Position numbers and translations under genes: made by a program. A DNA stretch of 64,000 nucleotides from SAR86 cluster bacterium AG-422-P06 (GTDB taxonomy: Bacteria; Pseudomonadota; Gammaproteobacteria; Magnimaribacterales; TMED112), in NCBI GenBank assembly GCA_003213455.1, contig QCMX01000001.1:67497-131496 (forward strand), read 5' to 3'. Positions 32,017 to 52,121 of this stretch are shown one piece after another. Every line of letters begins with the position of its first letter. Within the stretch, counting starts at the first letter, position 1. The notes beneath the pieces were generated by a model. The model made no database searches. It was not told the DNA's origin and saw nothing but the letters and a program-made list of their open reading frames with translations.

Positions 32017-32017
32017 G

Positions 32018-35021: not shown

Positions 35022-36166
35022 TGTCTTATATCTTTACGTCTGAATCAGTTTCAGAAGGGCATCCTGACAAAATTTGCGATCAGATTTCTGATGCAATATT
35101 AGATGAATGTTTGAAATCAGATTCAAATTCACGAGTAGCTTGCGAGACTTTAATAAAAAACAATACAGTTATTGTTGCTGGTGAAATCACCTCAAAATCA
35201 GAGGTAGATTATGAAGCCGTAGCAAGAAAAGTTGTTGAAGATATAGGTTATATCGAAGATGAGCTTGGATTTACCAGCAGTGGCTTTGAATTTCAAAATC
35301 TCATATCTGAGCAAAGCAAAGATATAGATGCTGGTATATCAGGAGATGTGGTTTTAGGCTCAGGAGATCAAGGTTTGATGTTTGGTTATGCCTGCAAAGA
35401 GACTCCAGAACTTATGCCATTGCCAATTGCTTTAGCCCATAAATTAATGCTCAAACATTCTGAAGTTAGAAAAACCAAAGGACTAGGCTTAAGACCAGAC
35501 GCTAAATCACAAGTTTCTGTAGAATACGATTCTAACTACCAGCCAAAACGTATCGATTCTATAGTTCTATCAACACAACATAATGGTGATCTAGATTTGG
35601 AGAACTTAAGAGAAATCGTTAAAACACAAATTATTGATTTATGTTTACCAAAGACACTTTTGGATAATGATACAAAATACCTTATAAACCCTGCAGGTCG
35701 ATTTGTAATCGGTGGGCCAGTTGGTGATTGTGGCTTAACTGGAAGAAAAATTATTGTGGACACCTATGGTGGTATGGCTAGACATGGTGGCGGTGGTTTT
35801 TCAGGTAAAGACCCATCAAAAGTAGATCGCTCAGCTGCCTATGGGCTCAGGCAAGTTGCAAAATCATTAGTTAAAAATGAGCTTTGTGATTATTGTGAAG
35901 TGCAAGCATCATATGCAATTGGAGTTTCTGAACCAATATCAATTTATATCAACACTTTTGAATCAGAAAAAATAAAATTAAGTGAAATACAAAAAATTGT
36001 TCAGGATAATTTTGATTTATCTCCATCAGGCTTAATTAATTCACTTAATTTATTAATGCCTATTTATTCAAAGACTGCTTCTTATGGCCATTTTGGTAGA
36101 GAAGACCAAGGCTTTACATGGGAAATACCATTAAATTTAAAAAATACTGCTAAAATTAACACATGA
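35021..36166 (+). CDS. metK: S-adenosylmethionine synthase
   Basis: 381 aa. Motifs FTSESVSEGHPDKICDQISD, GAGDQGLMFGYA-type (GSGDQGLMFGYA), GGGGFSGKDPSKVDRSAAY. Confidence 0.98.
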   Translation: MSYIFTSESVSEGHPDKICDQISDAILDECLKSDSNSRVACETLIKNNTVIVAGEITSKSEVDYEAVARKVVEDIGYIEDELGFTSSGFEFQNLISEQSKDIDAGISGDVVLGSGDQGLMFGYACKETPELMPLPIALAHKLMLKHSEVRKTKGLGLRPDAKSQVSVEYDSNYQPKRIDSIVLSTQHNGDLDLENLREIVKTQIIDLCLPKTLLDNDTKYLINPAGRFVIGGPVGDCGLTGRKIIVDTYGGMARHGGGGFSGKDPSKVDRSAAYGLRQVAKSLVKNELCDYCEVQASYAIGVSEPISIYINTFESEKIKLSEIQKIVQDNFDLSPSGLINSLNLLMPIYSKTASYGHFGREDQGFTWEIPLNLKNTAKINT

Positions 36167-36939
36167 AAATCTCAGTAGTCAGTGGAGGCTTTGATCCTAT
36201 ACATTCTGGCCATATAAGTTATATAAATGCTGCTAAAAAATATGGCGACTACCTTATTATTGCTCTTAACAGCGATGAATGGCTAAGACAAAAGAAAGGT
36301 AAAGAGTTTATGCCATTTGAGGAGAGAAAATCTATCCTTGAAAGTATAAAAAATGTAGATGAAGTATTAGCTTTTGAAGATGATAAGTTAGGTAGCTGCA
36401 TGAATGCTCTTGAAAAGATCAAAGCTAAATTTCCAAATGATAAGATCATCTTTTGTAATGGTGGTGATAGAGGAAAAGAGAATATTCCTGAAATGGCTGT
36501 TAGTGGTATAAATTTTGAGTTCAGCGTTGGTGGCGATGATAAAAAAAATTCAAGTAGCTGGATTTTAAAAAATTGGAAATACGATAAAGAAAGAAGGATT
36601 TGGGGCGAGTTTTTTAATTTATTTGAAGATGATCAAGTAAAAGTTAAAGAGCTTATTATTGAACCAAAAAAAGGAATGAGTCTTCAAAAACATCACAAAA
36701 GAAGTGAAATATGGCTAGTCTCTCAAGGCAAGTGCCTTGTGAATTATTCAAAATTCGCTCCTGATAAAATTGAAGAAATTACTTTAGATAAACATAATAG
36801 TTTACACGTTGAATTAGGCGATTGGCATCAAATAACTAACCCTTTCAATGAAATATGCAAGATCATTGAAATACAATATGGCAAAGAAACTATTGAAGAG
36901 GACATAGAAAGACATAGTTATTATAAAGATAATGAGTAA
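36163..36939 (+). CDS. fusion protein: cytidylyltransferase-like (HxGH) nucleotidyltransferase domain + type-II phosphomannose-isomerase-like cupin domain
   Basis: 258 aa. N-terminal half [34 protein letters not shown] (CTP_transf_like/RfaE-domain-II/TagD type). C-terminal half [47 protein letters not shown]...[15 protein letters not shown] matches the ManC C-terminal cupin pattern (RPWG...vKri.v.PG..lSLQ.HhhRsEhW.vv.G...iEvQ.G.yl.EdDI.R). ATGA overlap with metK and 8-nt overlap with ahcY. Confidence 0.7.
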
Positions 36940-38290
36940 TTTCAAAGATTTTAAGGTTAAAGACATTTCTCTTGCAGAATTTGGTAGGCAAGAAATTTTA
37001 CTTGCGCAAGATGAAATGCCAGCACTTATGCAATTAAGAGAGAAGTACCGAGCTGAACAGCCTCTTAAAGGTGCAAAAATTATGGGATGCATCCATATGA
37101 CTATCCAAACAGCAGTATTAATAGAGACTCTTATTGATTTGGGAGCAGAAGTGAGATGGTCCTCATGCAATATTTTTTCAACACAAGATCATGCTGCTGC
37201 AGCTATAGCTGATAAAGGTATACCTGTTTTTGCATGGAAAGGTGAAACAGAAGAAGAATATGAATGGTGCTTAGATCAAACAATTAATAAGGATGGCCAG
37301 CCTTGGGATGCAAACATGATTCTTGACGATGGTGGGGACTTAACAATTAAAGTTCATAAAGAATATCCTGAAATGTTAGAGCATATACATGGGATTTCTG
37401 AGGAAACCACAACAGGCGTAAAAAGACTTGAAGAAATGCTTGCTAATGGCGAGCTAAAGGTGCCGGCAATTAATGTTAATGACTCTATGACAAAATCGAA
37501 GAATGATAATAAGTATGGATGTCGTCATGGCCTAGATGATGCTATTAAGCGTGGCACAGATATGTTGTTATCTGGCAAAAAAGCGCTAGTTATAGGTTAT
37601 GGTGATGTTGGAAAAGGGTCTGCAGATTCGCTCAAACAACAAAAAATGATAGTTGATGTTACAGAAATTGATCCTATCTGTGCAATGCAAGCATGTTTTG
37701 ATGGTTTCTGTGTAGTTTCAGCTTATGAGGATGGTGAAGTAACCAAGGATGGAACAAGACTAAACAAAGACTTACTGAGAAAATATGATCTAGTTGTGAC
37801 GACAACAGGAAATGTAAATGTTCTAGATAAATTTATGCTTGATGCATTGAAATCTGGTTGTGTTGTTTGCAATATTGGCCATTTTGATAACGAGATAGAT
37901 ATCAAGCATCTTAAAAGTTTTGAGTGGTACGAGGTAAAACCTGGTGTTCATAAAGTCCAAAGATCTGATAAGGATTACTTATTGCTTTTGGGTGAGGGTA
38001 GACTTGTTAATTTAGCACTAGCCACTGGCCATCCAAGCAGAGTTATGGATGGATCATTTTGTAATCAAGTGATGGCACAAATTTCACTATTTAAAGAAGC
38101 TTTTGCTTCAAAGAATCCAGATGAAAAAGAACTTTTTGTGAAAGTTCTTCCTAAAAAGCTTGACGAAGAAGTGGCATCATTAATGGTTAAAGGGTTCGGA
38201 GGCACAATCACAAGACTTACAGATGAACAGTCAAAATACATCAAAGTCGATAAAACAGGACCATTTAAGGGTGAAAAGTATACGTACTAA
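36932..38290 (+). CDS. ahcY: adenosylhomocysteinase
   Basis: 452 aa. Motifs [70 protein letters not shown]. Confidence 0.97.
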
Positions 38291-38335: not shown

Positions 38336-39349
38336 ATGAGAAAAGCATTAATCTCTGGCATAACTGGCCAAGACGGATCATATCTTGCTGAAATTCTACT
38401 AGACAAGGGTTACGAAGTTCATGGAATCTTAAGAAGATCATCTAGTTTTAATACATCAAGAATAGATCATATATTTGATCAACTTAAATTACACTATGGT
38501 GATTTAGTTGATAGCCAGTCTTTAAGCTCTCTTGTAAGTGATATAAAGCCTGATGAGATATATAACTTAGGAGCACAAAGCCATGTAAAAGTTTCTTTTG
38601 AGATACCTGATTATACTGCTCAGGTTGATGCTCTAGGTACTTTGCGATTTTTAGAAGCCATTAGGAGTTGTGGGCTTTCAGAAACTGTAAAATTTTATCA
38701 AGCTTCAACTTCAGAACTTTATGGATTAGTTCAAGAAGTGCCCCAAAAAGAAACCACACCTTTTTACCCACGTTCACCTTATGGTGTAGCTAAATTATAT
38801 GGGTATTGGATAGTAAAAAATTACAGAGAGGCATACGGATTGCATGCAAGCTCCGGGATTTTATTTAATCATGAGTCGCCAAGAAGAGGAGAAACATTTG
38901 TTACAAAAAAAATAACGAAAGGACTATCAAGGATCAAGAGAGGAATGCAAGAAAAAATTACATTAGGCAATATCTATGCAAAAAGAGATTGGGGTCATGC
39001 AAAAGATTTTTGCAATGCAATGTGGCTAATCTTGCAGCAAGAAAAACCAGATGATTATGTTATTTCTACTGATCAGCAAGTAAGTGTTAAAGATTTTATA
39101 AATATGTGTCTTGAAATCCTAGGTTTTAGTGTTGAATGGAAAGGTGAGGGTATTAATGAAGTTTGCATTGATACTAAAACTGGCAAAGTCATAATTGATA
39201 TTTCCAAAAAATATTTTAGACCCAGTGAAGTGGAGACTCTTTTAGGCGATTCTACAAAAGCAAGAAAGCAACTTAATTGGAAGCCAACATATAACCTTAA
39301 AGACCTTGCTAAAGAAATGATCGAATATGACTTAGAAGAAATTAAGTAA
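38336..39349 (+). CDS. gmd: GDP-mannose 4,6-dehydratase
   Basis: 337 aa. [51 protein letters not shown] (YxxxK), [19 protein letters not shown]. Confidence 0.96.
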
Positions 39350-40261
39350 ATGAAAATACTTATTTCTGGCGGAAATGGAATGGTTGGAACCAATCTAAGA
39401 AAATATTTATCACATGACCACCATCAAATATTATCTCCAAATAGGAGTGAGTTAAATTTACTAGATAAAGAAGCTGTTAATTTTTATCTAAAAGAAAATA
39501 AACCAGATACGGTAATTCATTGTGCAGGTTTAGTTGGAGGGATTGCAATGAATATTAATAATCAAGCATTGTCATTGCATAACAATACAGTAATGGGCTT
39601 AAACCTAATAAGTGCTTCGAAAGACAATGGCGTAAAAAAATTTATTAATTTAGGTAGTAGCTGTATGTATCCAAAAGACCTGAATGGTGAGTTGAAAGTT
39701 AAAGATTTATTGTCTGGAAAACTTGAACCAACAAATGAGGGTTATGCCATATCAAAAATTTTGATATGGAAATACTTGAAGCATTTATCTGATGATACTT
39801 TCGTTGGAAAAACTATTATTCCATGCAACCTCTATGGGCCTTTTGATAATTTTGATCCTATAAATGCACATCTTATACCTGCAGCAATAGTTAAAGCTCA
39901 TAATGCAAGACATAAAAATCAAAAAATTGAAATTTGGGGAAAAGGTGAAGTAAAGCGTGAGTTTCTGTTTGTTAAGGATTTAGCTAATTTCATAAAGATT
40001 TTTTTAGAAAGCTTCGATAGCATGCCAGCAGAGTGCAATTTGGGTGCTGAAAAAGACTACACTGTTTTAGAGTTTTATAAAAAAATTTGTGATACTGTTG
40101 GCATTCAGGAAAACTTTATTTTTTTAACTGAAAAACCTACGGGAATGAAACGTAAGAAACTTCAAATAGATTTTCAGAAATCAATAAATTGGAAACCAAA
40201 TTATAATTTAGAACAAGGGTTGGGTGAAACATATGAATTCTATAAAAAAACCATTAAATAA
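39350..40261 (+). CDS. GDP-L-fucose synthase family epimerase/reductase (Fcl, or its homologue GDP-L-colitose synthase ColC)
   Basis: 303 aa, collinear with Fcl: ELNLLD, AGLVGGI, LGSSCMYPK, LEPTNEGYAISK, CNLYGPFDNF, HLIPA. Starts 1 nt after the gmd stop. Fcl versus ColC cannot be separated by eye. Confidence 0.85.
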   Translation: MKILISGGNGMVGTNLRKYLSHDHHQILSPNRSELNLLDKEAVNFYLKENKPDTVIHCAGLVGGIAMNINNQALSLHNNTVMGLNLISASKDNGVKKFINLGSSCMYPKDLNGELKVKDLLSGKLEPTNEGYAISKILIWKYLKHLSDDTFVGKTIIPCNLYGPFDNFDPINAHLIPAAIVKAHNARHKNQKIEIWGKGEVKREFLFVKDLANFIKIFLESFDSMPAECNLGAEKDYTVLEFYKKICDTVGIQENFIFLTEKPTGMKRKKLQIDFQKSINWKPNYNLEQGLGETYEFYKKTIK

Positions 40262-41399
40262 GCTTAGCCTGGCTTACAGCACATGGGATGAGAAAGAATT
40301 GTCAGCAATGAATAATGTAATCAGCTCAGGTACATTCACTATGGGGAATAATGTAAGAGAATTTGAGGCTAATTTTTCTAAATTTATTGGCACAAATTAT
40401 TCAGTCATGGTTAATTCGGGGTCTTCGGCAAATTTATTAATGGTTGCCGCATTATTTGCTCAAAAAAAATTAAAAAAAGGTGATGAAATTATAGTGCCTG
40501 CAGTTTCATGGAGTACAACCTTCTTACCTCTTCAGCAACATGGCCTTAAAGTAAAATTTATTGATATTGACCTAGAGACACTGAACTTAGATTTAAAACA
40601 GCTCAAAAAAGCGATTTCAGCAAAAACTAAAGCAATTTTTCTAGTAAATTTACTGGGAAATCCTATAGACATAAATGAGCTAAACAAAATTGTTAACAGA
40701 GAAAAAATTTACATCATAGAGGATAACTGTGAATCATTAGGCGCTAAAATTGAAAGCAGAAGAGCAGGAACTTTTGGAATTATGTCTTCACATAGCTTCT
40801 TTTTTTCACATCATATCTCAACAATGGAAGGCGGAATGATCTCAACAGATGATGAAGAACTTTATCTGGTCTTGAAATCATTAAGAGCGCATGGGTGGAC
40901 GAGAGATTTGCCAGACGAATCTAATTTGCATTCAAAATCTAAAGATCCATTCTATGACATGTTCAACTTTATAATTCCAGGGTACAACGTAAGACCTTTA
41001 GAGCTTAGTGGTGCCATAGGAATAGAGCAATTAAAAAAATTAGATCATCTTATTAAAATTAGAAGGCAAAATGCAAAACTTTTTAATGAAATAATGGCTG
41101 ACAAAAAAGATATTTTAATACAGAAGGAGGTTGGTCAAAGCTCATGGTTTGGTTTTAGCATGATAAATAAAAATGAAAAAATTTCACCCAAGGAATTTAG
41201 AAAAAAAATTTCAGATCTGGGTTTTGAAATAAGACCTATAGTTGCGGGCAATTTTACAAGAAATAAAGTTATTGAATACTTTGATTTTGAAGTTTTTGGT
41301 GATCTAAAAAATGCTGACTACCTTCATGATAATGGTTTATTTATTGGTAACAATTCAATTGATATTTCAGATCATCTTGAAAGACTTATTGATTTATAA
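40224..41399 (+). CDS. DegT/DnrJ/EryC1/StrS-family PLP enzyme of the sugar 3-dehydratase subclass (ColD-like GDP-4-keto-6-deoxy-D-mannose 3-dehydratase)
   Basis: 391 aa (GTG at 40224; ATG at 40233 is the alternative). Motifs STWDEKELSAMNNVISSGTFTMG and NSGSSANLL. At the position of the Schiff-base lysine motif (SF..tK..t.GEGG) it reads SFFFSHHISTMEGG, with His instead of Lys. Adjacent to gmd and fcl/colC. Confidence 0.75.
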   Translation: MKHMNSIKKPLNKLSLAYSTWDEKELSAMNNVISSGTFTMGNNVREFEANFSKFIGTNYSVMVNSGSSANLLMVAALFAQKKLKKGDEIIVPAVSWSTTFLPLQQHGLKVKFIDIDLETLNLDLKQLKKAISAKTKAIFLVNLLGNPIDINELNKIVNREKIYIIEDNCESLGAKIESRRAGTFGIMSSHSFFFSHHISTMEGGMISTDDEELYLVLKSLRAHGWTRDLPDESNLHSKSKDPFYDMFNFIIPGYNVRPLELSGAIGIEQLKKLDHLIKIRRQNAKLFNEIMADKKDILIQKEVGQSSWFGFSMINKNEKISPKEFRKKISDLGFEIRPIVAGNFTRNKVIEYFDFEVFGDLKNADYLHDNGLFIGNNSIDISDHLERLIDL

Positions 41400-41413
41400 T
41401 TACAGAACATAAA

Positions 41414-41487
41414 GGCTGAGTGGCAGAGTGGTTATGCAGCGGACTGCAACTCCGTGTACATCGGTTCGATTCCGTTCTCAGCCTCCA
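41414..41487 (+). tRNA. tRNA-Cys (anticodon GCA)
   Basis: 74 nt folded by hand. Acceptor GGCTGAG/CTCAGCC (7 bp). D-arm GCAG..ATGC with a 13:22 mismatch. Anticodon stem GCGGA/TCCGT with loop CTGCAAC. 4-nt variable loop. T-arm ATCGG-TTCGATT-CCGTT (one U-U mismatch). Discriminator U73 and encoded CCA. Architecture parallels E. coli tRNA-Cys. Confidence 0.9.
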
Positions 41488-41491
41488 GATT

Positions 41492-42442
41492 ATGAAAATT
41501 TTAGTATCAGGATCATCAGGCTTTATTGGCTTTCATTTAATCAAAGAACTATTAAACGCTGGTCATGAGGTTGTAGGATTTGATAACCATAATGATTATT
41601 ACAACCCTGATTTGAAATTGAAAAGATTAACTCTTCTTAGTTCAAAAAAATTTACCTTCTATGAGTTAGATTTAAATAATATTCTTATAAATGATCAAGA
41701 TTTTGACTTAGCTATAAATTTGGCTGCTCAAGCTGGAGTAAGAGTGCCTGCAGAAAAGGACTATCTTTATGAAACCACAAATATAGAAGGTTTCAATTCG
41801 TTCTGTAATTTCTGCGCAAAGAGAAATATCAAAAAAATTATTTATGCCTCAAGTAGTTCTGTATATTCCGATATAAATGAGGGCAAATTTGATGAAGTAA
41901 ATACTCCCTTAAAACCTAAGTCAAAATATGGCAAATCAAAAATTGCAAATGAGCTACATGCATCAGAACTCGCCAAGTTAGATGATTTATCGATGGTTGG
42001 CCTTAGATTTTTTTCAGTTTATGGCCCATTTGGAAGGCCAGACATGGCGTATTATGCTTTTGCACAAGCAATAAAAAATAAGCACACTGTTACATTAAAT
42101 AATGAAGGCAATATGTACAGAGACATGACTTATATAGATGATATTATTCAAGGGGTCCTAGGGGCAATAAATTATGCTGCCAATCCAAAAAATATATATA
42201 AGAATGAGATATTTAACTTAGGGAATGATGCTCCCATTAAAACAAAATATATGTTAAATACAATTGAAAAATATCTTGGCAAAAAAGCAATAATTCAACA
42301 ATGTAAAACAAATAATGAGAATTTAAAAACCCATGCAAATATCACTAAGGCAAAAAATTTATTAGGATATGAGCCTAGAGTATCATTTGATGAGGGTATT
42401 GAAAGATTTCTTGATTGGTATAAGTATTATGAAAATATATAG
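41492..42442 (+). CDS. NAD-dependent epimerase, UDP-glucuronate 4-epimerase family
   Basis: 316 aa from ATG 41492 (MKILVSGSSGFIGFHL). The ORF-track start at 41420 reads through the tRNA and is spurious. Motifs YASSSSVY, YGKSKIANE (YxxxK), GLRFFSVYGPFGRPDMA are typical of Cap1J/LpsL-type UDP-GlcA 4-epimerases. Confidence 0.85.
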   Translation: MKILVSGSSGFIGFHLIKELLNAGHEVVGFDNHNDYYNPDLKLKRLTLLSSKKFTFYELDLNNILINDQDFDLAINLAAQAGVRVPAEKDYLYETTNIEGFNSFCNFCAKRNIKKIIYASSSSVYSDINEGKFDEVNTPLKPKSKYGKSKIANELHASELAKLDDLSMVGLRFFSVYGPFGRPDMAYYAFAQAIKNKHTVTLNNEGNMYRDMTYIDDIIQGVLGAINYAANPKNIYKNEIFNLGNDAPIKTKYMLNTIEKYLGKKAIIQQCKTNNENLKTHANITKAKNLLGYEPRVSFDEGIERFLDWYKYYENI

Positions 42443-43292
42443 AAAGCTTAAGTTAGGAATAGTTGGGCATGGGTTTGTTGGCAAAGCTACTGATTGGGGT
42501 TTTAACAGACGTACAAGTAAATTTATCGTAGACCCATTATTGAATACTACAACAAGTGACCTGAGAGGTTTTGAACCAGAAATAGTCTTTGTGTGTGTCC
42601 CTACGCCAATGAGTGATGATGGCAGTCTCGATTCATCGATTATTAAAGGAGTTATTAAAGAATTGGTTTTATATTGCCCAAATGCTATCAAAGTTATTAA
42701 AAGTACAATTATTCCATCTCTGCTAGAAGAGTTGCATGAATTAGACTCCAAATTAGTTTATAACCCAGAATTTCTTAGAGAAAAGCACGCCAATTCTGAT
42801 TTTATTAACTCTGACATGATTATTTTCGGTGGCGATAGAAATATTTCTACCCAAGTTTCAAATGCGTACTTAAAGCACTCTAGGTGCAAAACAAAAGAGC
42901 ACATATTTACTGATCTGAAGACGGCCTCTCTTATAAAATATTCCATAAATACATTTCTAGCCTCAAAAGTAATTTTTTTTAATGAACTTCATTCTATTTA
43001 TGAAAAACTTAATGTAAAAGATAGCTGGGAGTCATTTGTAAACATCATCTCTCGAGATAAAAGGATTGGAAGCAGTCATATGAATGTTCCTGGACATGAT
43101 GGCAGGAAAGGTTTTGGTGGTGCATGTTTCCCTAAAGATAGCTTGGCCTTGATTAAATTTGCCAATAGCCAGGGTATAGATTTAAATTCATTAATATCAA
43201 CAGTCAAAATAAATAATAAAATTAGATCTCAATATAAGGAGCCAGAATCAAGGGAATCTGAGCAAAATGTATCATTCGATGATAAAATTTGA
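42429..43292 (+). CDS. UDP-glucose/GDP-mannose dehydrogenase-family protein, short (no C-terminal UDP-binding domain)
   Basis: 287 aa from ATG 42429 (MKIYRKLKLGIVGHGFVGKA). Motifs NPEFLREK and catalytic-Cys GFGGACFPKD are present. The protein ends about 55 aa after the catalytic Cys, with a hydrophilic tail (YKEPESRESEQNVSFDDKI), 7 nt before tRNA-Leu. Confidence 0.7.
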   Translation: MKIYRKLKLGIVGHGFVGKATDWGFNRRTSKFIVDPLLNTTTSDLRGFEPEIVFVCVPTPMSDDGSLDSSIIKGVIKELVLYCPNAIKVIKSTIIPSLLEELHELDSKLVYNPEFLREKHANSDFINSDMIIFGGDRNISTQVSNAYLKHSRCKTKEHIFTDLKTASLIKYSINTFLASKVIFFNELHSIYEKLNVKDSWESFVNIISRDKRIGSSHMNVPGHDGRKGFGGACFPKDSLALIKFANSQGIDLNSLISTVKINNKIRSQYKEPESRESEQNVSFDDKI

Positions 43293-43299
43293 CGCTATT

Positions 43300-43386
43300 G
43301 CCCAGGTGGTGAAATTGGTAGACACAAGGGACTTAAAATCCCTCGAAGGAAACTTCGTGCCGGTTCAAGTCCGGCCCTGGGCACCA
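43300..43386 (+). tRNA. tRNA-Leu (anticodon UAA)
   Basis: 87-nt class II tRNA. Acceptor GCCCAGG/CCTGGGC. Anticodon arm AGGGA-CTTAAAA-TCCCT. Long variable arm CGAAGGAAACTTCG. T-arm GCCGG-TTCAAGT-CCGGC. Discriminator A and encoded CCA. Closely parallels E. coli leuZ. Confidence 0.93.
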
Positions 43387-43403
43387 TTTACAAGAATTCG
43401 AGT

Positions 43404-44930
43404 ATGTGCGGTTTATTTATAAGTAATTATGATTTCAAAAATAAGAATATTGAAAGTATCATTGAAAAAAATCTTCGTTTTAGAGGGCCAGATGGTTCTT
43501 CTGGTATATTAAAAAATAATGGGTGGATTTCATATCACTCAAGATTGGCAATAATTGATCTTAGCAGCACAGTAAATCAGCCAGTCATCAACTCTGATTC
43601 CAGTCAATTAGTATTTAATGGTGAGATTTTAAACTACAAAGAATTAGGATTGCATTATTTCAACAAGGAATATAACAGTGACACTTTCTTGCTTAATGAT
43701 TTAATTGTATTTGAAAAATTAAACTTATCAGAGCTTGATGGTTTTTTCTCATTCGTTTTTATTGATGGTGATGGAAAAATTAAATATGCATGCCGTGATA
43801 AGTTTGGTGTAAAACCACTATTTTTTCATAAATCTAATGAACAAATAACCTTTGCTTCTGAACCTAACGTTCTTCAAGATTTATTCTCCCCATCCATAAA
43901 TGAGGAAGCAGTTGAAGAATACAAAGCATTCAGAGCACCAATCTTCGAAGGTAGTTTTTACAATTCAATTCAGCAAGTAGATCCCGGACATTGCTTTATT
44001 AATGGAAGGTTTTTCAGTGCTGAGATCGAATTACTTAATGCAAAAAAAAGTTCTTCATCAAAAAATAACGAAACGCTCAAAAAAGCAATTAAGCAAGGAG
44101 TAAAAAGTCGCTGTGTATCAGATGCCCCTGTTGGTTTGCTTTTAAGTAAAGGTATAGATAGTAATCTTATAAAACATACTGAAGATTTCAAAAATATGTA
44201 TTCAGTAGGTTTCTGCGGGGATGAAGATATTGAATATTTGTCTGATCAAAATATTGATGGACTAAAAATATTAAATGTTGATAAAGATGAATTTGTCAAA
44301 GCTTTCGATTACCTATTAAGTTTAAGAAAGGAACCATTATCAGTGCCAAATGAAGTTTTATTATACTTAATCGCATTAAAAGCGAAGGGAGACGGGATAA
44401 AAGTTTTACTTTCTGGTGAGGGTGCTGATGAATTTTTTGGTGGTTATGACCGAATTTTTACATGGGCAGCAAATAATCAAAATTTTGATCTTGAGAGTTT
44501 TTTAGAGCTTTATGCGTATACTGAAATTAAAAAAGGATCAAAACTTTATCAAAAAATGGAAAGTTTGTTCTCTAATTGCACGATAAAGAATACATTTGAA
44601 CTAGTAAGATGGTTTTTCATTCGATACCACATGCCAATACTGTTCAGGCGATTAGATTTTTCTTTAATGGCTGCTGGTGTTGAAGGGCGAGAGCCAATTG
44701 CTAATGCTCATTTATTTTCAGTTTGTAGCATGCTTTCAGGTGATGATTTGATGATTAATGGTCTAGGAAAAAAACCACTAAGAGAAATACTTTCGGAATA
44801 TTTAGGAGAAGATTTTGCTTACGCAAATAAAGTTGGATTTCCAGTTGATTTAACTAAGATTTTTAGTAATCCTGATAAACTATCATCATATGAACTTTGG
44901 TTCTCAAAAAATTTAGAGGTATTGCGATGA
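43404..44930 (+). CDS. asparagine synthase (glutamine-hydrolysing)-like amidotransferase
   Basis: 508 aa. N-terminal Ntn nucleophile MCGLF, followed by RGPDG and HSRLAIIDL. Synthetase-domain motif LLSGEGADEFFGGYDR. Confidence 0.85.
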   Translation: MCGLFISNYDFKNKNIESIIEKNLRFRGPDGSSGILKNNGWISYHSRLAIIDLSSTVNQPVINSDSSQLVFNGEILNYKELGLHYFNKEYNSDTFLLNDLIVFEKLNLSELDGFFSFVFIDGDGKIKYACRDKFGVKPLFFHKSNEQITFASEPNVLQDLFSPSINEEAVEEYKAFRAPIFEGSFYNSIQQVDPGHCFINGRFFSAEIELLNAKKSSSSKNNETLKKAIKQGVKSRCVSDAPVGLLLSKGIDSNLIKHTEDFKNMYSVGFCGDEDIEYLSDQNIDGLKILNVDKDEFVKAFDYLLSLRKEPLSVPNEVLLYLIALKAKGDGIKVLLSGEGADEFFGGYDRIFTWAANNQNFDLESFLELYAYTEIKKGSKLYQKMESLFSNCTIKNTFELVRWFFIRYHMPILFRRLDFSLMAAGVEGREPIANAHLFSVCSMLSGDDLMINGLGKKPLREILSEYLGEDFAYANKVGFPVDLTKIFSNPDKLSSYELWFSKNLEVLR

Positions 44931-45343
44931 TTGTTGGATATACAACAGGTGTTTATGATTTGTTCCATGTTGGGCACGTTAATATGCTCAAAAATGCAAA
45001 ATCGATGTGCGATCGTTTGATTGTGGGAGTTACAGTCGATGAACTTGTTGCTTACAAAAATAAAAAAGCTGTAATACCGTTTTCAGAAAGAATTGAAATT
45101 GTTAGTGCATGTCGATATGTTGATCTTGCTGTACCTCAAACAAGCATGAACAAAATTGATGCACATAGACGCTATAAATTCCATAAAATGTTTGTTGGTG
45201 ATGACTGGTATAAGACGGATAAATGGGATGAATATGAGAAGCAGTTCGAAGCTATAGGTGTGGAAATAATATATTTTCCTTACACAAAAAATACTAGCTC
45301 TACTTTAATCAATAACACTTTAAAAAAGCTTAGGAAATCTTGA
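44927..45343 (+). CDS. glycerol-3-phosphate cytidylyltransferase (TagD-like)
   Basis: 138 aa from ATG 44927 (ATGA overlap with the upstream stop). Motifs GYTTGVYDLFHVGHVNMLKNAK...RLIVGVTVDE and CRYVDLAV are typical of the TagD/CTP_transf_like family. Confidence 0.85.
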   Translation: MIVGYTTGVYDLFHVGHVNMLKNAKSMCDRLIVGVTVDELVAYKNKKAVIPFSERIEIVSACRYVDLAVPQTSMNKIDAHRRYKFHKMFVGDDWYKTDKWDEYEKQFEAIGVEIIYFPYTKNTSSTLINNTLKKLRKS

Positions 45344-45393
45344 TTTGCACTTATATGTTCGTGTTTTTAAATAAAAAATACTGTTTATAAATA

Positions 45394-46695
45394 ATGAAAT
45401 ATTTGCTGATAGGTTTAAAAAAAATTTCTCAAAATTCATTAATAAGCAAATTCATTTCTAGTGCTTCAGAAAAATATATTTCTTCTTTAATTTCAGTTAT
45501 AGCCACTTTATTATTGACTTACCTATATGGTCTCGAACTAATTGGTTTTGTTGGTGTTTTTAGCATTTTTGTTGCTATTGGCCATATTCTTAGTAGCGCA
45601 GGCATTGGACAAATTATTCTTCGCTATGACATGACAGCTGGAATTTTGGCAGCACTTTTTCTGGTGAATGCGTTTATTGGTTGTTGTATTTTCCTTAGTT
45701 TTATATTGCTTGGCGATATATTCTCAGATTGGGCAAATGTTGAAAACTTCGATCAGGTTTTCAAATTTTATTGCTCAATAGTGGTTTTTAACGCTGTAAG
45801 TATGGTTCCAGTAGCCATAGTTACTAAAATCGGTAATTTTAAAATTTTAAACATTGCAAATTTATTGGCAATGATTTTGTCAATTTTTATTGTGTTAACG
45901 ACAGTAGATAAGGAGAATTATTTTTGGGCGAGCTTATATTTTGTATATTTTTATGGGTTCAGGGCATTCTTTTTATTAATTTATGTCAGGAAAATGGTTT
46001 GGGCTAAACCAAATTTTCTTCAATCTAGACAGTACATAAAATTTGGCTCTTATGTTTTTAGTGCAAACGTCTTGAAAACAGCAAGTGAAAATACTCTATC
46101 ATTTCTTCTTCCTAGCCTTGTAGGTCTTCAGTATGCTGGCTTTTATGGACTACTTGTTAAAGCAAGAGAGCTCATTGTCGGTTCACTCTCACATGCTATT
46201 CATAGAGTCATTTATGTTGAGAGATCAAAAGGTAATTATTCAAATTCTTATCCTAGGAATTCAGCATTGTTTTTAACAATATTTGCTTCTCTGTTCTGGG
46301 TTTGCTTAGCTATTTTTATTGATGATTTTTTAATTTATTTCGAAGTTAGATCTCTTAATAATCCTGATTTAACCTTAAAAGTATTTTTATTTGTACTCAT
46401 AACTACATTATTTTTACCAGCGTACAATATCTTTACTCAAATGATTCAATATAGTGATGTTAGGTTTTTTTCCTATATTGAAAATGCTTATGCTCTATCC
46501 TTTTTATTTATTGCTCTCTTCTATAGAGATACGCCAGGTTTAATCTTTACATTGCTTGGCTTGGTTGTAATATTTTTTGCAGTTATTGCTATATTAAAGT
46601 TCGAAAAAACCAACAAATTACGATTGCTTTCTCTAGTCTTTTTCTTAGGATTTTTTGCAGCATGCTATTTATTAATTTGGTGGTTGTTAAAATAA
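45394..46695 (+). CDS. wzx: polysaccharide flippase (Wzx-like, MOP/PST superfamily)
   Basis: 433 aa and highly hydrophobic, with about 12 predicted TM segments by eye. Located in the polysaccharide locus next to Wzy and glycosyltransferases. Confidence 0.65.
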   Translation: MKYLLIGLKKISQNSLISKFISSASEKYISSLISVIATLLLTYLYGLELIGFVGVFSIFVAIGHILSSAGIGQIILRYDMTAGILAALFLVNAFIGCCIFLSFILLGDIFSDWANVENFDQVFKFYCSIVVFNAVSMVPVAIVTKIGNFKILNIANLLAMILSIFIVLTTVDKENYFWASLYFVYFYGFRAFFLLIYVRKMVWAKPNFLQSRQYIKFGSYVFSANVLKTASENTLSFLLPSLVGLQYAGFYGLLVKARELIVGSLSHAIHRVIYVERSKGNYSNSYPRNSALFLTIFASLFWVCLAIFIDDFLIYFEVRSLNNPDLTLKVFLFVLITTLFLPAYNIFTQMIQYSDVRFFSYIENAYALSFLFIALFYRDTPGLIFTLLGLVVIFFAVIAILKFEKTNKLRLLSLVFFLGFFAACYLLIWWLLK

Positions 46696-46737
46696 CTAAG
46701 AAAGTATGGTGATTAAATGCAGAGGCTAGATATATAG

Positions 46738-47523
46738 ATGAAAAGAATTATTTATCTTTCAGGTGGTTTTGGGAATCAGTTATTTCAAATTATGGCAGCT
46801 GCTCACTTATCAAGTTTAAATTTTAATGTGTTTATTGATACTTCTCTAGTTGAGAGAAATTTTATAACAGAAAAATTACTTGGTTGGAAAATACATGGTA
46901 ATTTCGTTGAACAAAATTTTGCACAAAATTTTAGATTTGGAAAGCGTTCTCAAATAAATGTTCTATATGATTTGGCAATACTATCTCTATCAAATGCACT
47001 GAATGGCAGAGTTTTTTCTCATGAATTTGTTCGTACTGAACGTGATTTCATTCATCCAGATGCAAAAATTATTATGGGTTATTTTCAAAATTTAAGGATG
47101 TATTCTAGCGATCAGTTTGAAAGGTATTTAAAACTTTTTGAAACAATAATATCTTCAAAAAGCTTACAGAATAGAACAGTTATACACTTTAGGTGGGGCG
47201 ACAGTGATTGGGCAAAAAAGCACTCTTCATATTATTCAAAAGTTTTTGAAATCGCTAAAAACATAAATAAGCCTGTTAAAATTGTTACAGATGATGAGCT
47301 TAATTGTAAAAGGTTCCTTCAAAACTATGACCTGAAATACACAATTGAGAGTAGCAACGTTTTTAGTGACTTTGAGTTTTTAGCTAATTCAAAAGTGATT
47401 TTCACTGCTCCAAGTACTTTCTCTTGGTGGGCAGCCATTTTAAGAAATAATAAAAAAGAAATATATATGCCGAAATTTTTTGAAGAAAGGTTTGTGAATA
47501 CTGCTAATATAAATTATTTATGA
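46738..47523 (+). CDS. glycosyltransferase family 11 (alpha-1,2-fucosyl/colitosyl-transferase-like)
   Basis: 261 aa. GT11 motifs GGFGNQLFQIMAA (cf. GGLGNQMFQYA), VIHFRWGD (cf. HVRRGDY), PSTFSWWAAIL. Confidence 0.8.
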   Translation: MKRIIYLSGGFGNQLFQIMAAAHLSSLNFNVFIDTSLVERNFITEKLLGWKIHGNFVEQNFAQNFRFGKRSQINVLYDLAILSLSNALNGRVFSHEFVRTERDFIHPDAKIIMGYFQNLRMYSSDQFERYLKLFETIISSKSLQNRTVIHFRWGDSDWAKKHSSYYSKVFEIAKNINKPVKIVTDDELNCKRFLQNYDLKYTIESSNVFSDFEFLANSKVIFTAPSTFSWWAAILRNNKKEIYMPKFFEERFVNTANINYL

Positions 47524-48632
47524 ATATTGCTTTAAAAAAGACACATTATTTTTTTAATTTTGAACAATTACGTAACAATCTTTTTGCCATAGAAATAGCA
47601 CTTTTCCCGTGGATAAACTATTCTGATTCTCTTAGATTGCTTTTTATTCTCATCTTAGGAATAAATGTATCTTATTCATTTTACAATTTTATTGTTACTG
47701 GTAAATCTAGATCACTTACAGCTATAGACATATTTCTAGGATGTCTAATTCTTTTAAGCTTATTTAATCCAGGGTCTTATTGGCAGGAATCATTCTCTAC
47801 GGAAAATGTTATTTTCAGGTTGTCAGTGTATTACCTTAGATATTTAACTTTTCCAGATGATTTTTTAAGAAAAAATATTAATCTTTTATTTCGGTATTTC
47901 TTGATTTCGGCGTTTCTTGTAATATTTGTCTGGATTTTTCAGGAGTCGAATCTTAGACTTATTTTGCCATATGGAGATCCAAATTACCTGGGTTTTATTT
48001 TTGGCAGTTATGCAATCCTAGCAATGTGTTACGCATCGAGTAGAAGGGCAAATACAGTTTCTATTATGCTTATAATACTTTGCTTTTACATTGTTTTGCT
48101 TACAGCTTCTAGGGGATCAATTTTAGCACTTGTTCTCGCCTCCTTACTTATTTTTATAAAAGACATTTTTCGATTCTTAGGAGTCATAGTTCTTCTGCTT
48201 TTTGCATCACAATTAGAATTCGTTAGAGGTTTATATTCAGACTTATTTATTATTGAGCGAATCCTTGATCCAAGGGACTCAGATATTGGGGCAGCAAATG
48301 TAAGGCTTGTAGAAATCGAAATTGCTCTTAAAATGCTAGGCAATGATTTCATCAATGCCTTATTTGGCCATGGTGCAAGTACCACTTCATCAGAAATTTT
48401 CAGTGACTCTAGTACTAGAATCCATAATAGTTACGTTGCAATAATATTTGAGCAAGGAATTATTGGGGGAATATTTGCATTAATTATTGCCATATTAATG
48501 TTACTTAAATCTGAAAAAAATGGTCTTTTGCCGTTAACTATTTTTATGCTATTAAACTCTATGACGGTGTTCATTTTTACCTTTTATCATTTTTATATTT
48601 TTGTTAAATTAATCCAGAGCAAGAAACCATGA
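47520..48632 (+). CDS. wzy: O-antigen/capsule repeat-unit polymerase (Wzy, O-antigen-ligase-like domain)
   Basis: 370 aa, multi-TM, with a periplasmic loop followed by RIHNSYVAIIFEQGIIGG (Wzy_C-type motif). Confidence 0.65.
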   Translation: MNIALKKTHYFFNFEQLRNNLFAIEIALFPWINYSDSLRLLFILILGINVSYSFYNFIVTGKSRSLTAIDIFLGCLILLSLFNPGSYWQESFSTENVIFRLSVYYLRYLTFPDDFLRKNINLLFRYFLISAFLVIFVWIFQESNLRLILPYGDPNYLGFIFGSYAILAMCYASSRRANTVSIMLIILCFYIVLLTASRGSILALVLASLLIFIKDIFRFLGVIVLLLFASQLEFVRGLYSDLFIIERILDPRDSDIGAANVRLVEIEIALKMLGNDFINALFGHGASTTSSEIFSDSSTRIHNSYVAIIFEQGIIGGIFALIIAILMLLKSEKNGLLPLTIFMLLNSMTVFIFTFYHFYIFVKLIQSKKP

Positions 48633-49588
48633 TTCATGCTGTAGGAGCTAATAAAGCAAATCCAAATGGTGGTGTTTACAGTTATATTGCTAATCTGTCA
48701 TATTCATTAAATGATCTTCAGTTTTATAGTTACAATGAGTTTTTTAAATTTTTTAACAATATTCAAGATGGCGATACAGTTTTTTTAAACGTTCCCAAAC
48801 CAAGTTTGCCATTCTTAATCTTATCAAAAATTAAATTCAATAAGAAAATATCTATTGTATATTGTGGGCACGGGCTTGCTTATAGGAATCATAAAGGGAT
48901 AAAAAAAGTAGTTGTTAAGTTTTGCGAATATCTCATTTCCAAACTTTCAGACAAAATTATTGTTTTAAATAAAAAACATATGAAAAAATATTTGTCTTGG
49001 AATGAATCTTCTAATTTAATTCCAACATGTTTAAGACCTATAGAGTTCACTAATAATACAAATAAACAAATTGGGTCAGCTATTTCTTGGGTTGCAGTTG
49101 GATCTGTAGATAATAATAAAAACCCAAAACTATTCTTAGAAATCAGTCGTGTAATAAAGGGTCTTTTTCCTAGAGACACATTCACTTGGATTGGGGATGG
49201 GCCGCTTTTTAAGAATTTTGATGTTGAGTCCCTCAAAACAGAAGGAATATTTTTTATTGGTTCCATGGATAATAAGCTTGTTAGAAAAAAACTTAGAGAA
49301 CATGATATATATATTTGTACTTCAATTTCAGAAGTTTTGCCTATAACGATATTAGAAGCAGTAGAATCAAAATGTATCATTCTTGTGAGAAATTACCTTA
49401 ATAGTGATGACATTACATCGAGGTTTTCATCAGCAGTAAGTTTTAAAAATAGCAATCAAGTACTTGAATTAAGAAAAAACATTGATAAATTGCAAGGACT
49501 AAGAAAAGCAGCAATCAATGAAGCAAGTAATATTAGCGAATCTTATGTAACCTATATAAAACAAATGAAAAAAGTATTGGATGTATAA
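48629..49588 (+). CDS. glycosyltransferase, GT-B fold (GT4-like)
   Basis: 319 aa. C-terminal EVLPITILEAVESKCIILVRN matches the E-x7-E region of GT4 enzymes. Confidence 0.7.
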   Translation: MIHAVGANKANPNGGVYSYIANLSYSLNDLQFYSYNEFFKFFNNIQDGDTVFLNVPKPSLPFLILSKIKFNKKISIVYCGHGLAYRNHKGIKKVVVKFCEYLISKLSDKIIVLNKKHMKKYLSWNESSNLIPTCLRPIEFTNNTNKQIGSAISWVAVGSVDNNKNPKLFLEISRVIKGLFPRDTFTWIGDGPLFKNFDVESLKTEGIFFIGSMDNKLVRKKLREHDIYICTSISEVLPITILEAVESKCIILVRNYLNSDDITSRFSSAVSFKNSNQVLELRKNIDKLQGLRKAAINEASNISESYVTYIKQMKKVLDV

Positions 49589-50744
49589 CCTATTATTAAA
49601 AATAGACGCATTATTTCAAAAGTTTAAGATCTATAGTTTGTTAGGAATATTTTTATCATTGATTCCGAAAAGTAGAAAAATAATTTTTACAAGTTATCCA
49701 AATTACAGCGATTCTGTGCTTGCTTTTTACCAGTTTATGGTCGCACAAAAAGCAAATAATCGCATGATTTGGATTGATGTTCGTGGAGAAAGTAAGACTA
49801 TACCATCAAACATTGAATCTTATAATTTTCTATCTTTAAAAGGCCTTTACCATTTTCTTACAGCTAAAGTAATCTTTACTAACAATAATGAATTTTTTCG
49901 AATTAAGGCTTCAAATCAAGTTTTAATTGATTTTTGGCATGGGATACCTTTAAAAAATATTCTTAATTACGATAATGCCCTTGATATCAAATTGTTAAAA
50001 CATGCTTATAGAACTGATTATAGAATATCGTCTTCAAAGCTATGTACAATGCTGCTTTCCTCAGCTTTTGGAAATTCAATGTCAGAATATATTGAAACTG
50101 GTTATCCCAGAACAGATTTAGTTCTGTCAGATAATAATGAAGACTTTTTAAAAAAATTGAACATTGATAAAGGAAAAAAAATCTTATTATATATGCCGAC
50201 CTATAGAGCAGGTTATAGAAATAAATCAGATGGTGATTATTCTTACGAAAGGCTTTATGAGTCTGATAATTTCAAGAAATACTGTAAATCAAAAAATATT
50301 CATTTAATTGTTAAATTACATCCTTTTGAGAGACATGAATCAGGAAAGTATGATTACTATTCAATATATAGCGATGATGATCTTATTAAGGTCGGCTTGT
50401 GTTCTAGTAATTTGCTAAGTATTGCAGATAATTTAATTACTGATTATAGCTCTGTGGCCATTGATTTTTTAGCAACAAGAAAACCACTCTTTTTCTATGT
50501 TCCTGATTTAAGTGCTTATCACAGTAATAGGGGTTTTATTTTTGATGTTAATTCTATTTTTGACGAAGCAACTTTTACCTCTGTAGATGACCTTATAATT
50601 GCTCTTCAAAATCAATTTTCTCTGGAATATACCAATAAAATGGAAATTTATTCTGATTTATTTTTTAATTTCAAAGATACTGATAATTCTCATAGACTTT
50701 TTATCTGGCTAACAAAAAAGTACCCAAAAATCTTTTTGAGCTGA
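49581..50744 (+). CDS. CDP-glycerol glycerophosphotransferase (TagB/TagF family)
   Basis: 387 aa. Motifs FWHGIPLKNI, LLYMPTYR, ITDYSSVAIDFLATRKPLFFYVPD are typical of the Glyphos_transf family. Confidence 0.8.
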   Translation: MYNLLLKIDALFQKFKIYSLLGIFLSLIPKSRKIIFTSYPNYSDSVLAFYQFMVAQKANNRMIWIDVRGESKTIPSNIESYNFLSLKGLYHFLTAKVIFTNNNEFFRIKASNQVLIDFWHGIPLKNILNYDNALDIKLLKHAYRTDYRISSSKLCTMLLSSAFGNSMSEYIETGYPRTDLVLSDNNEDFLKKLNIDKGKKILLYMPTYRAGYRNKSDGDYSYERLYESDNFKKYCKSKNIHLIVKLHPFERHESGKYDYYSIYSDDDLIKVGLCSSNLLSIADNLITDYSSVAIDFLATRKPLFFYVPDLSAYHSNRGFIFDVNSIFDEATFTSVDDLIIALQNQFSLEYTNKMEIYSDLFFNFKDTDNSHRLFIWLTKKYPKIFLS

Positions 50745-50826
50745 TAGACTCTAATTTAAATTTTATTTTTCATAAAAAGTTAATTATTAGATCTGGTACT
50801 TATGCATACAAGTTGGAAAAATTTAA

Positions 50827-51668: not shown

Positions 51669-52112
51669 CTACACCTCTTCTAAATTAATATTTTCTGCGA
51701 CATATTTGATATTGTTCATTACTTTAATATATTCATCTGATTGAAATTTATAAGGATCTAATATATCTATTTCTCTAAATTGCCCTGTTAAAGATCGAAA
51801 CTTATCCCTATATTTTGGAAAAGCAATATTCAATTGATTTAAAACAAAAAAGTCTACCGCTAAAATCTTGTCAAAATAATCTAACATTTTTTTATTGATT
51901 TTTTTTGGAGTATGGAAATTATGATCAATATTATTTTCTTGTAAAAATTTAAGCGATCTTGGGTCCATATTTGGTAATTCTATCGGAGATATTCCTGCAG
52001 AAAAAAATTCATATTTATTAACATGTCTTGCCTTTAGTAAGTTTTCTACAACTGGGCTCCTGCAATAATTAGCTATACAAACTATGCAGTATGATCTTCT
52101 CGAAGTTGTCAC
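51669..52112 (-). CDS. wzb: low-molecular-weight protein-tyrosine phosphatase
   Basis: 147 aa. Active-site CX5R(S) loop VCIANYCRSP. Downstream Asp (DILDPY). Adjacent to wza/wzc. Confidence 0.88.
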   Translation of the reverse strand: MTTSRRSYCIVCIANYCRSPVVENLLKARHVNKYEFFSAGISPIELPNMDPRSLKFLQENNIDHNFHTPKKINKKMLDYFDKILAVDFFVLNQLNIAFPKYRDKFRSLTGQFREIDILDPYKFQSDEYIKVMNNIKYVAENINLEEV

Positions 52113-52121
52113 AATAACTGG

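Follow-up and report, generated by a model that had tools for sequence, protein, structure and literature searches.

Two tRNA genes mark the start of a hypervariable surface-polysaccharide island in SAR86 and may lead the transcription of its interchangeable gene cassettes

The 64,000-nt stretch of the genome of SAR86 cluster bacterium AG-422-P06 analysed here (contig QCMX01000001.1; hereafter the window) contains genes for tRNA-Cys(GCA) and tRNA-Leu(UAA) inside a polysaccharide gene cluster, each followed within 20 nt by the start codon of a sugar-pathway gene. Sequence comparison with relatives indicates that this tRNA pair, located downstream of the adenosylhomocysteinase gene ahcY, marks the start of the hypervariable surface-polysaccharide island of SAR86. 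As judged from the same comparison, three slots (ahcY to tRNA-Cys, tRNA-Cys to tRNA-Leu, and behind tRNA-Leu) are filled by differing sugar-gene cassettes, while the tRNA genes stay fixed and nearly invariant. On balance, we lean towards a reading in which the tRNAs head transcription units and the sugar genes follow on near-leaderless mRNAs, with the tRNA genes serving as recombination anchors as well.

A fixed tRNA pair among variable cassettes

A 36-nt stretch of tRNA-Cys gave six genome matches, all of them SAR86 single-cell or metagenome-assembled genomes, and a metagenome scan with the 3' 29 nt of the gene gave at least 120 further loci (at least 126 in total), all with SAR86-type synteny. 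The locus counts in this study are counts among the matches listed, which were found by the exact 29–36-nt tRNA-Cys pattern and form a sample that is neither complete nor phylogenetically balanced. The tRNA-Cys sequence was the same in five of the six SAR86 genome loci and one base off in L005, and the tRNA-Leu sequence was the same or 1 nt off in four SAR86 genomes. Together, the two tRNAs were present in at least 56 metagenomic and genomic loci.

The ahcY/tRNA-Cys anchor was found in 89 of the listed loci, with a syntenic core from infC through ahcY. ahcY directly adjoined tRNA-Cys (≤30 nt) in 58 listed loci and was parted from it by inserted genes in 31. The distance between tRNA-Cys and tRNA-Leu, available for 56 listed loci, ranged from 6 to 11,423 nt and clustered at ~40 nt (adjacent tRNAs), 870–1160 nt (one gene; mode 900–1150 nt), and 1803–1842 nt (mode near 1812 nt). 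The third cluster corresponds to a sugar epimerase gene plus a truncated nucleotide-sugar dehydrogenase gene resembling Ugd (Ugd-like), which was the commonest filling among the matches listed and is also that of the window. Homologues of the epimerase (47–85% identity) begin 1–7 nt after tRNA-Cys in ~48 listed loci.

Individual loci illustrate the range of arrangements. In L005, ahcY is followed after 19 nt by tRNA-Cys, after another 47 nt by tRNA-Leu, and then by unrelated genes. The order in L003 is ahcY, tRNA-Cys, a 5-nt spacer, the epimerase, the Ugd-like gene, tRNA-Leu, a 4-nt spacer, and other genes; L002 has the same epimerase/Ugd-like module with a different upstream gene. An extra open reading frame (ORF) lies between ahcY and tRNA-Cys in L004 and L006, which have other content downstream. 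The cassette upstream of tRNA-Cys in the window (gmd, a GDP-fucose-synthase-like gene, and an aminotransferase gene) has the same place in L085 and L055 and a different one within the locus in L014 and L123; most loci lack it. The window's set of genes behind tRNA-Leu was found there in no other listed locus save L001, an identical contig. As in replacement islands, relatives have one such locus between core genes, and its gene content is of the same class and often non-homologous.

The initial annotation, which was made from the window alone, had proposed a comparison of related genomes to see whether the tRNAs are fixed and the flanking sugar genes vary. Across the at least 126 loci this is strikingly so. 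The initial annotation had further described the tRNAs as bracketing a two-gene module, which is correct for the window, but the module is the commonest of many fillings and not a fixed unit.

Anatomy of the tRNA–gene junctions

Just two tRNAs were found in the 64-kb window by ARAGORN and the Rfam model RF00005 (E ~2e-10, gathering score 29), and both have a cloverleaf and the correct anticodon loop according to these two independent models (Table 1). The aminotransferase stop (ending at 41399) lies 14 nt before tRNA-Cys and the Ugd-like stop (ending at 43292) 7 nt before tRNA-Leu, as read from the sequence. On the 3' side, the epimerase ATG (41492) follows the CCA of tRNA-Cys after 4 nt, and the ATG of an AsnB-like gene (43404) follows the CCA of tRNA-Leu after 17 nt. 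The tRNA positions and the four spacings that had been given in the initial annotation were thus exact by ARAGORN, Rfam, and the sequence. We take ATG 41492 to be the true start of the epimerase, because a Rossmann motif G-x-x-G-x-x-G (MKILVSGSSGFIG) begins at residue 7 counted from this codon and relatives share the N-terminus.

Table 1 Features of the window around the two tRNA genes.
Feature	Position	Strand	Basis or remark
ahcY (adenosylhomocysteinase), last core gene before the variable region	36932–38290	+	NCBIfam TIGR00936, 521 bits
ahcY-to-Cys cassette as a whole	38336–41399	+	Pfam, NCBIfam
gmd	38336–39349	+	Pfam, NCBIfam
GDP-fucose-synthase-like gene	39350–40261	+	Pfam, NCBIfam
DegT/RfbH/ColD-like aminotransferase	40224–41399	+	NCBIfam, best score to RfbH/DegT family
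TATAAT, -10-like hexamer, putative tRNA-Cys promoter element	41395–41400	+	13 nt 5' of tRNA-Cys; overlaps aminotransferase TAA stop
tRNA-Cys(GCA), encoded CCA	41414–41487	+	ARAGORN; Rfam RF00005, 59.6 bits
4-nt spacer GATT, CCA to epimerase ATG	41488–41491	+	Sequence
Extended-SDR NAD-dependent sugar epimerase (GalE/TviC-like), first gene of Cys-Leu cassette	41492–42442	+	Pfam PF01370, 1.3e-42; NCBIfam
Ugd-like truncated nucleotide-sugar dehydrogenase, 287 aa, second gene of Cys-Leu cassette	42429–43292	+	Pfam PF03721 and PF00984 only
TGATAAAAT, putative extended -10-like element	43280–43288	+	11 nt 5' of tRNA-Leu, in last Ugd-like codons
tRNA-Leu(UAA), encoded CCA	43300–43386	+	ARAGORN; Rfam RF00005, 59.5 bits
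17-nt spacer TTTACAAGAATTCGAGT, tRNA-Leu CCA to AsnB-like ATG	43387–43403	+	Sequence; no -10-like box
Post-Leu cassette	43404–51642	+	Pfam, NCBIfam
wzb, wza, wzc (export, chain length), closing the polysaccharide region	51669–55035	-	LMWPc, polysaccharide export protein, and Wzc matches
aceE, core gene beyond the island	55112		Profile match

Both tRNAs are on the same strand as the ORF that follows, with no terminator or promoter in between, which is the arrangement of a mixed tRNA-mRNA operon. Neither the 4-nt nor the 17-nt spacer behind the tRNAs holds a -10 box. One terminator-like site was found in 36–53 kb, where 7.1 were expected, and none was near either tRNA, in agreement with the earlier description of the tRNAs as embedded, co-oriented, and unterminated in the polysaccharide cluster. 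Two details were amended: the start of the Ugd-like gene was moved to 42429, where it overlaps the end of the epimerase gene, and the aminotransferase that had been called ColD-like scored best to RfbH/DegT-family aminotransferases.

Spacers behind the tRNAs

In 90 of the listed loci, tRNA-Cys is followed by an ORF on the same strand. The spacer is ≤20 nt in 69 of these loci and exactly 4 nt in 36, and the remaining short spacers are mostly 1, 5, 7 or 8 nt long (1 nt in three loci, 5 nt in seven). The 4-nt spacers vary freely in sequence (gatt, tata, acat, aaat, and others). Behind tRNA-Leu, the spacer is ≤20 nt in 30 of 54 listed loci. The 69 genes close behind tRNA-Cys belong to 10 unrelated protein families and those close behind tRNA-Leu to 18, and at least 28 unrelated gene families stand directly behind the two tRNAs. 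A special constraint on the exact 4-nt spacer length was considered and dropped, as other short spacers were about as constant.

The spacer lengths are bimodal: only three spacers are 21–29 nt long, and 38 of the 42 spacers of ≥30 nt contain a TAnnnT box with at least a 5/6 match to TATAAT, often as TGTATAAT. A gene next to a tRNA therefore appears either to bring its own promoter or to sit directly on the tRNA. The epimerase (4 nt) and the AsnB-like gene (17 nt) would be transcribed through the tRNA, because their spacers are too short for a separate promoter. This pattern is the strongest indirect evidence, drawn from the compared sequences, that short-spacer genes, the epimerase and the AsnB-like gene of the window included, are transcribed through the tRNA, and it favours the proposal in the initial annotation that the downstream genes share a transcript with the tRNA because the 4- and 17-nt gaps leave no promoter room.

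Promoter-like boxes in front of the tRNAs

We scored a box upstream of a tRNA when a TAnnnT hexamer with at least a 5/6 match to TATAAT ended 5–15 nt 5' of the tRNA, and all ahcY contexts were counted as one when independent contexts were compared. Among the matches listed, tRNA-Cys had such a box in 29 of 47 sequence clusters and in 21 of 38 independent contexts, and tRNA-Leu had one in 18 of 38 independent contexts. Random positions had a box in 6.4% of cases, operonic gene junctions in no more than 12%, and long-gap junctions in no more than 22%, and the enrichment was significant against these controls (binomial p from 7e-16 to 5e-4).

The window's TATAAT in front of tRNA-Cys is kept in the closest relative, L085, though the next 13 nt differ, and where ahcY stands upstream TTTA[AG]AAT is retained and the ~10 nt after it vary freely. 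In front of tRNA-Leu, TGATAAAAT is encoded by GAT GAT AAA AT of the Ugd-like tail (…DDKI*; GAT GAT AAA ATT TGA). A TGnTA[AG]AAT box also occurs 9–14 nt 5' of tRNA-Leu where no Ugd gene precedes it (L005, L025, L079, L093, L018, and L009); in L005, L025, and L079 it lies in a plain spacer between the two tRNAs, and in L093 and L018 it follows other genes. Across 20 unique Leu-adjacent Ugd-like coding sequences, GAT GAT AAA had invariant wobble bases, compared with gene-wide usages of 14% GAC and 22% AAG, and the wobble sites flanking the box do vary. Copies of the Ugd-like gene away from tRNA-Leu mostly have other C-terminal endings.

The initial annotation had held that there was no room for dedicated promoters. 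This does not stand, given -10-like boxes 5–15 nt upstream of the tRNAs in about half of the contexts, well above the 6.4% background. The boxes also make it less likely that an essential tRNA supply is tied to transcription of the polysaccharide operon, as had been suggested. With the boxes lying next to the tRNAs, the cassettes more probably depend on the tRNA promoters than the reverse. Read-through from upstream probably contributes to tRNA transcription as well and may be its sole source in some genomes.

The dependence of the tRNAs on the operon was part of a model, that of the initial annotation, in which a single long polysaccharide polycistron starts upstream of gmd or further back, has no internal promoters, and yields the tRNAs only by excision. 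We consider this model unlikely. It agrees with the gene organization, since from 16.5 to 51.6 kb every gene is on the + strand with tiny or negative spacers, and with the single terminator-like site in 36–53 kb; about half of the relatives' tRNA upstream contexts have no recognisable -10 box, and read-through into the tRNAs is possible everywhere. However, it does not explain why -10-like boxes are strongly enriched at a fixed distance 5' of both tRNAs whatever the upstream gene, why they persist where the tRNAs are adjacent to each other or come straight after the housekeeping gene ahcY, or why the wobble sites inside TGATAAAAT are invariant. In the 58 listed loci where tRNA-Cys comes right after ahcY, there is no sugar gene upstream, so the tRNAs cannot in general depend on a polysaccharide operon.

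Genome compaction by itself might also have produced these junctions. The tRNAs would then simply be squeezed between genes without any coupling, the boxes would be AT-rich noise, and the downstream genes would be carried on unprocessed read-through or poorly expressed. Junctions of 4–17 nt are indeed typical here, as the median intergenic distance is 8 nt (quartiles -4 and 103), and the closed HIMB1674 genome has a coding density of 96.3% (PMC11582366). Sigma-70-like sites were not in excess either: a generic scan of 36–53 kb found 74 against 86.5 expected, and the boxes emerged only from the position-anchored comparison across loci. We nevertheless regard compaction alone as improbable, because it leaves unexplained the split between spacers of ≤20 nt without a box and those of ≥30 nt, which have one in 38 of 42 cases, and because the -10 enrichment 5' of the tRNAs holds against matched junction controls. 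In addition, the epimerase and the Ugd-like gene are under purifying selection at this position (47–85% protein identity), which argues that they are expressed.

Proposed expression of the cassettes

From these features we infer the transcription start sites, co-transcription, processing sites, and mode of translation as follows. Each tRNA would retain its own short promoter in the form of a -10 or extended -10 box 8–13 nt upstream, and where a cassette has been inserted upstream this box would come to lie buried in the last codons of the preceding gene. Because neither tRNA is followed by a terminator, transcription would continue into the next cassette gene and yield a tRNA-mRNA co-transcript, to which read-through from upstream may add. 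RNase P and the 3'-end pathway for CCA-encoding tRNAs would then release the tRNA and leave an mRNA with a leader of ~0–4 nt, which would be translated without a Shine-Dalgarno (SD) sequence, as most SAR86 mRNAs appear to be. At the same time, the invariant tRNA sequences could act as homology anchors that let recombination swap the cassettes.

The processing step has a known basis. In the 3' pathway for CCA-encoding tRNAs, an endonucleolytic cut a few nucleotides downstream is followed by exonucleolytic trimming (PMC4681348). Maturation of tRNA-Cys would thus be predicted to leave the epimerase mRNA with a 0–4-nt leader.

The initial annotation had noted that no SD sequence precedes the epimerase, and the sequence agrees. 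This is not special to the epimerase, because only 13% of 745 SAR86 genes carry a core SD (-18 to -4), compared with 7% in a control interval. Of 194 non-redundant genes preceded by a gap of ≥40 nt, 34 (17.5%, ~3.4 times background) have a -10-like box whose end lies 6–9 nt 5' of the ATG. This box-to-ATG geometry is typical of leaderless transcripts, and its cases in the window include aceE at 55112 and a gene start at 11054. As far as gene starts can tell, SD-free or leaderless initiation may be widespread in SAR86, which would be unusual for a gammaproteobacterium. In RNA folding of 41400–41540 the cloverleaf was not the minimum-energy fold (z = -0.5), a result that is uninformative on the accessibility of the start codon.

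Several points weigh against tRNA-led expression. In E. coli, a 5'-monophosphate mRNA with a leader of a few nucleotides is a poor substrate for leaderless initiation. The boxes are short AT-rich motifs in a genome with 67% AT (GC content ~33%), no clear -35 hexamer was seen upstream of either box when the sequences were read, and the upstream contexts that have no box, about half of the total, include those of the L004 type. Both boxes of the window overlap coding sequence, where coding and promoter constraints are not fully separable. The 4-nt mode of the spacers comes mostly from one family, the epimerase, and the distance from the Ugd stop to tRNA-Leu is likewise near-constant (7 nt in ~64% of cases), so the exact 4-nt value may be explained by inheritance rather than selection. 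The uneven make-up of the locus sample described above counts on the same side.

Exchange of cassettes at the tRNA genes

The window and L104 share 93–98% nucleotide identity from tRNA-Cys to ~42,100 (~600 nt) and 72–80% beyond, and the genes upstream of tRNA-Cys are non-homologous between them. Compared with L085, the window shows ~87% identity upstream, and downstream the identity drops from 94% to 71%. Homologous exchange at conserved flanks is therefore seen in a single clear example, the mosaic breakpoint between the window and L104. In glycotype islands, cassettes are replaced through homologous recombination at conserved anchors (PMC4033161). The sequence mosaic fits a replacement of the SAR86 cassettes in the same manner.

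An alternative is that site-specific integrases inserted the cassettes at the 3' ends of tRNA-Cys and tRNA-Leu, in which case the junctions would be integration scars unrelated to expression. Integration commonly targets tRNA genes (PMC11898729), and the cassettes, from many unrelated families, do start within a few nucleotides of a tRNA 3' end. However, no second copy of the 25-nt 3' end of either tRNA (≤3 mismatches) was found in the window, that is, no att-type repeat, and no integrase-like gene was found among the ORFs from 38.3 to 55.0 kb, every one of which has a sugar-pathway, glycosyltransferase, or export annotation. Moreover, cassettes vary upstream of tRNA-Cys too, and the homology between the window and L104 begins at the tRNA and decays inside the epimerase, which is the signature of homologous recombination. 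We dropped the integrase-island model, which we now view as very unlikely.

Some loci show rearrangements around the tRNAs. In L041, tRNA-Leu, the Ugd-like gene, and the epimerase are inverted relative to tRNA-Cys. An inverted Ugd-like gene lies upstream of tRNA-Cys in L106, L108, and L117; an inverted tRNA-Leu was detected too in L108 and L117, and L108 also has an inverted epimerase. The two tRNA-Leu copies of L108 face opposite ways, and one lies 6 nt after tRNA-Cys. These arrangements suggest inversions mediated by duplicated tRNA genes. In L009, where the gap between tRNA-Cys and tRNA-Leu is 144 nt, ~45 nt of homology to the Ugd-like 3' end persist, TGATAAAAT included, and this spacer looks like the scar of a deletion of the epimerase/Ugd module that spared the tRNA-Leu box. 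The gap in L071 has a similar length (141 nt).

Comparison with known systems

In E. coli, uvrC, pgsA, and a tRNA-Gly gene are followed by tRNA-Cys and, after 12 nt, by tRNA-Leu, and the tRNA-Leu annotated right behind tRNA-Cys in E. coli shares 79% identity with that of the window. This gene is presumably leuZ, in a tandem that we take to be the one called cysT-leuZ. The adjacent pair in E. coli suggests that the Cys-Leu(UAA) tandem is old and was opened up in SAR86. The E. coli glyW-cysT-leuZ cluster and the SAR86 locus agree in the two tRNA species and in their order and orientation, with uvrC upstream on the same strand, and some SAR86 loci likewise keep the pair adjacent, 37–49 nt apart. 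Unlike the E. coli cluster, the SAR86 pair has no neighbouring tRNA-Gly or pgsA, has 10 kb of core genes (infC-rpmI-rplT-pheST-metK-ahcY) between uvrC and the tRNAs, and is split by protein-coding cassettes. Each SAR86 tRNA also appears to have its own -10 box, in contrast to the single-operon pair of E. coli. Full synteny with the E. coli uvrC-pgsA-tRNA region was considered and proved half right, as the supposed pgsA is infC and the 143-aa ORF behind uvrC resembles a glyoxalase gene.

Mixed tRNA-mRNA operons of E. coli include thrU-tyrU-glyT-thrT-tufB, metY-rimP-nusA-infB, and secG-leuU. RNase P and 3' processing free the tRNAs from these transcripts and leave a functional mRNA part. They resemble the case proposed for SAR86 in having tRNAs and protein genes on one transcript. 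However, their spacers are tens to more than 100 nt long and hold an ordinary ribosome-binding site, whereas the ATG in SAR86 comes 1–20 nt (mode 4) after the CCA, where none fits. Their protein partners are fixed housekeeping genes, while those in SAR86 are interchangeable cassettes.

In mitochondrial tRNA punctuation, reportedly described by Ojala, Montoya and Attardi in 1981, excision of the tRNA is said to define the mRNA 5' end and to give (near-)leaderless, SD-free messages. As in the case proposed for SAR86, the mRNA starts directly after the tRNA, and the 4-nt spacer before the epimerase falls within the mitochondrial type of abutment (0 to a few nt). Unlike in mitochondria, only two tRNAs are present in the 64-kb window. 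They stand among ~13 cistrons, and most of the gene borders in the cluster are direct gene-gene junctions without punctuation. The SAR86 tRNAs furthermore seem to have their own promoters, and, with an encoded CCA, their 3' ends would be processed by a route other than that of RNase Z. To our knowledge, neither mixed operons nor mitochondrial punctuation combines interchangeable cassettes with start codons that abut the CCA.

Glycotype (replacement flexible) islands share with the SAR86 locus the same chromosomal position, surface-glycan genes, and differing content, and they too are bounded by conserved stable-RNA genes, with variants exchanged by homologous recombination. The O-chain cluster of SAR11, for example, sits between the stable-RNA genes for 23S and 5S rRNA (PMC11898729). 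Two differences stand out. The stable-RNA genes of SAR86 are tRNAs inside the island, dividing it into three separately variable slots, and the start codons of its cassettes abut the tRNA 3' ends, which suggests a link to expression besides the role of a recombination anchor.

Other features of the island and its surroundings

The Ugd-like protein scored 147 bits to TIGR03026, below the cut-off of 189.8 bits, and covers about residues 65–300 of the 390–450-aa UDP-glucose dehydrogenases (PDB matches). The C-terminal UDP-sugar-binding domain is missing, and the GGxCxPKD motif with the catalytic cysteine is kept. It is not a pseudogene, because homologues are conserved at 50–86% identity in dozens of SAR86 loci. 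The post-Leu cassette of the window contains an AsnB-like amidotransferase, a cytidylyltransferase, a flippase, a GT11-like glycosyltransferase, Wzy, GT4, a TarF-like CDP-glycerol glycerophosphotransferase, and GT2.

Upstream of the island, the core genes are, in order, uvrC, the glyoxalase-like gene, infC, rpmI, rplT, pheS, pheT, metK, a cytidylyltransferase-cupin fusion, and ahcY. The fusion gene (36163–36939, between metK and ahcY) encodes 258 aa, a cytidylyl/adenylyltransferase joined to a cupin with a mannose-6-phosphate-isomerase-like C-terminus. It is kept in nearly all loci, a gene of sugar-nucleotide type among the core genes just outside the island. infC, rpmI, rplT, pheS, and pheT are at 31289–35021, 3–10 kb upstream of the hypervariable island. 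The genes for IF-3, L20, L35, and the two phenylalanyl-tRNA synthetase (PheRS) subunits were missing from four SAR86 assemblies, for which an unassembled hypervariable region was also reported (Dupont et al. 2012, PMC3358033). These 'missing' genes were probably lost with an assembly break at this island. pheT (33084–35021) encodes 645 aa that align to positions 158–787 of the 798-position bacterial model, and the SAR86 PheRS beta subunit seems to lack its N-terminal ~150 residues.

Apart from tRNA-Cys and tRNA-Leu, the fetched loci contain a single tRNA, a tRNA-Gln in L012, with a CCA that is not encoded and a downstream spacer of 66 nt. L001 (Logan contig SRR7041131_2, 5980 nt) is 100% identical to 37.7–43.7 kb of the window and spans both tRNAs and their junctions; no paper mentioning the run was found. 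If this contig were RNA-derived, it would itself support continuous transcripts.

Significance for SAR86

No description of this locus was found in the searchable SAR86 literature. The surface-glycan island is probably a main target of phage and grazer selection in SAR86, of which an isolate exists (PMC11582366). If the cassettes are expressed from the tRNA genes as proposed, any imported cassette could do without a promoter and a ribosome-binding site of its own. This would account for the ability of a genome that has hardly any intergenic DNA and only a few regulators to swap large sets of surface genes and express them at once. The locus would parallel mitochondrial tRNA punctuation in a free-living bacterium and be a natural bacterial example of leaderless mRNAs made by tRNA processing. 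It would thereby link three topics, namely island borders formed by stable-RNA genes, mixed operons of tRNA and mRNA, and initiation independent of an SD sequence. As a more tentative generalization, invariant stable-RNA genes might serve as joint docking and expression platforms for promoterless glycan cassettes in SAR86, and perhaps in other streamlined marine bacteria, with tRNA 3' maturation providing mRNAs with a 0–4-nt leader.

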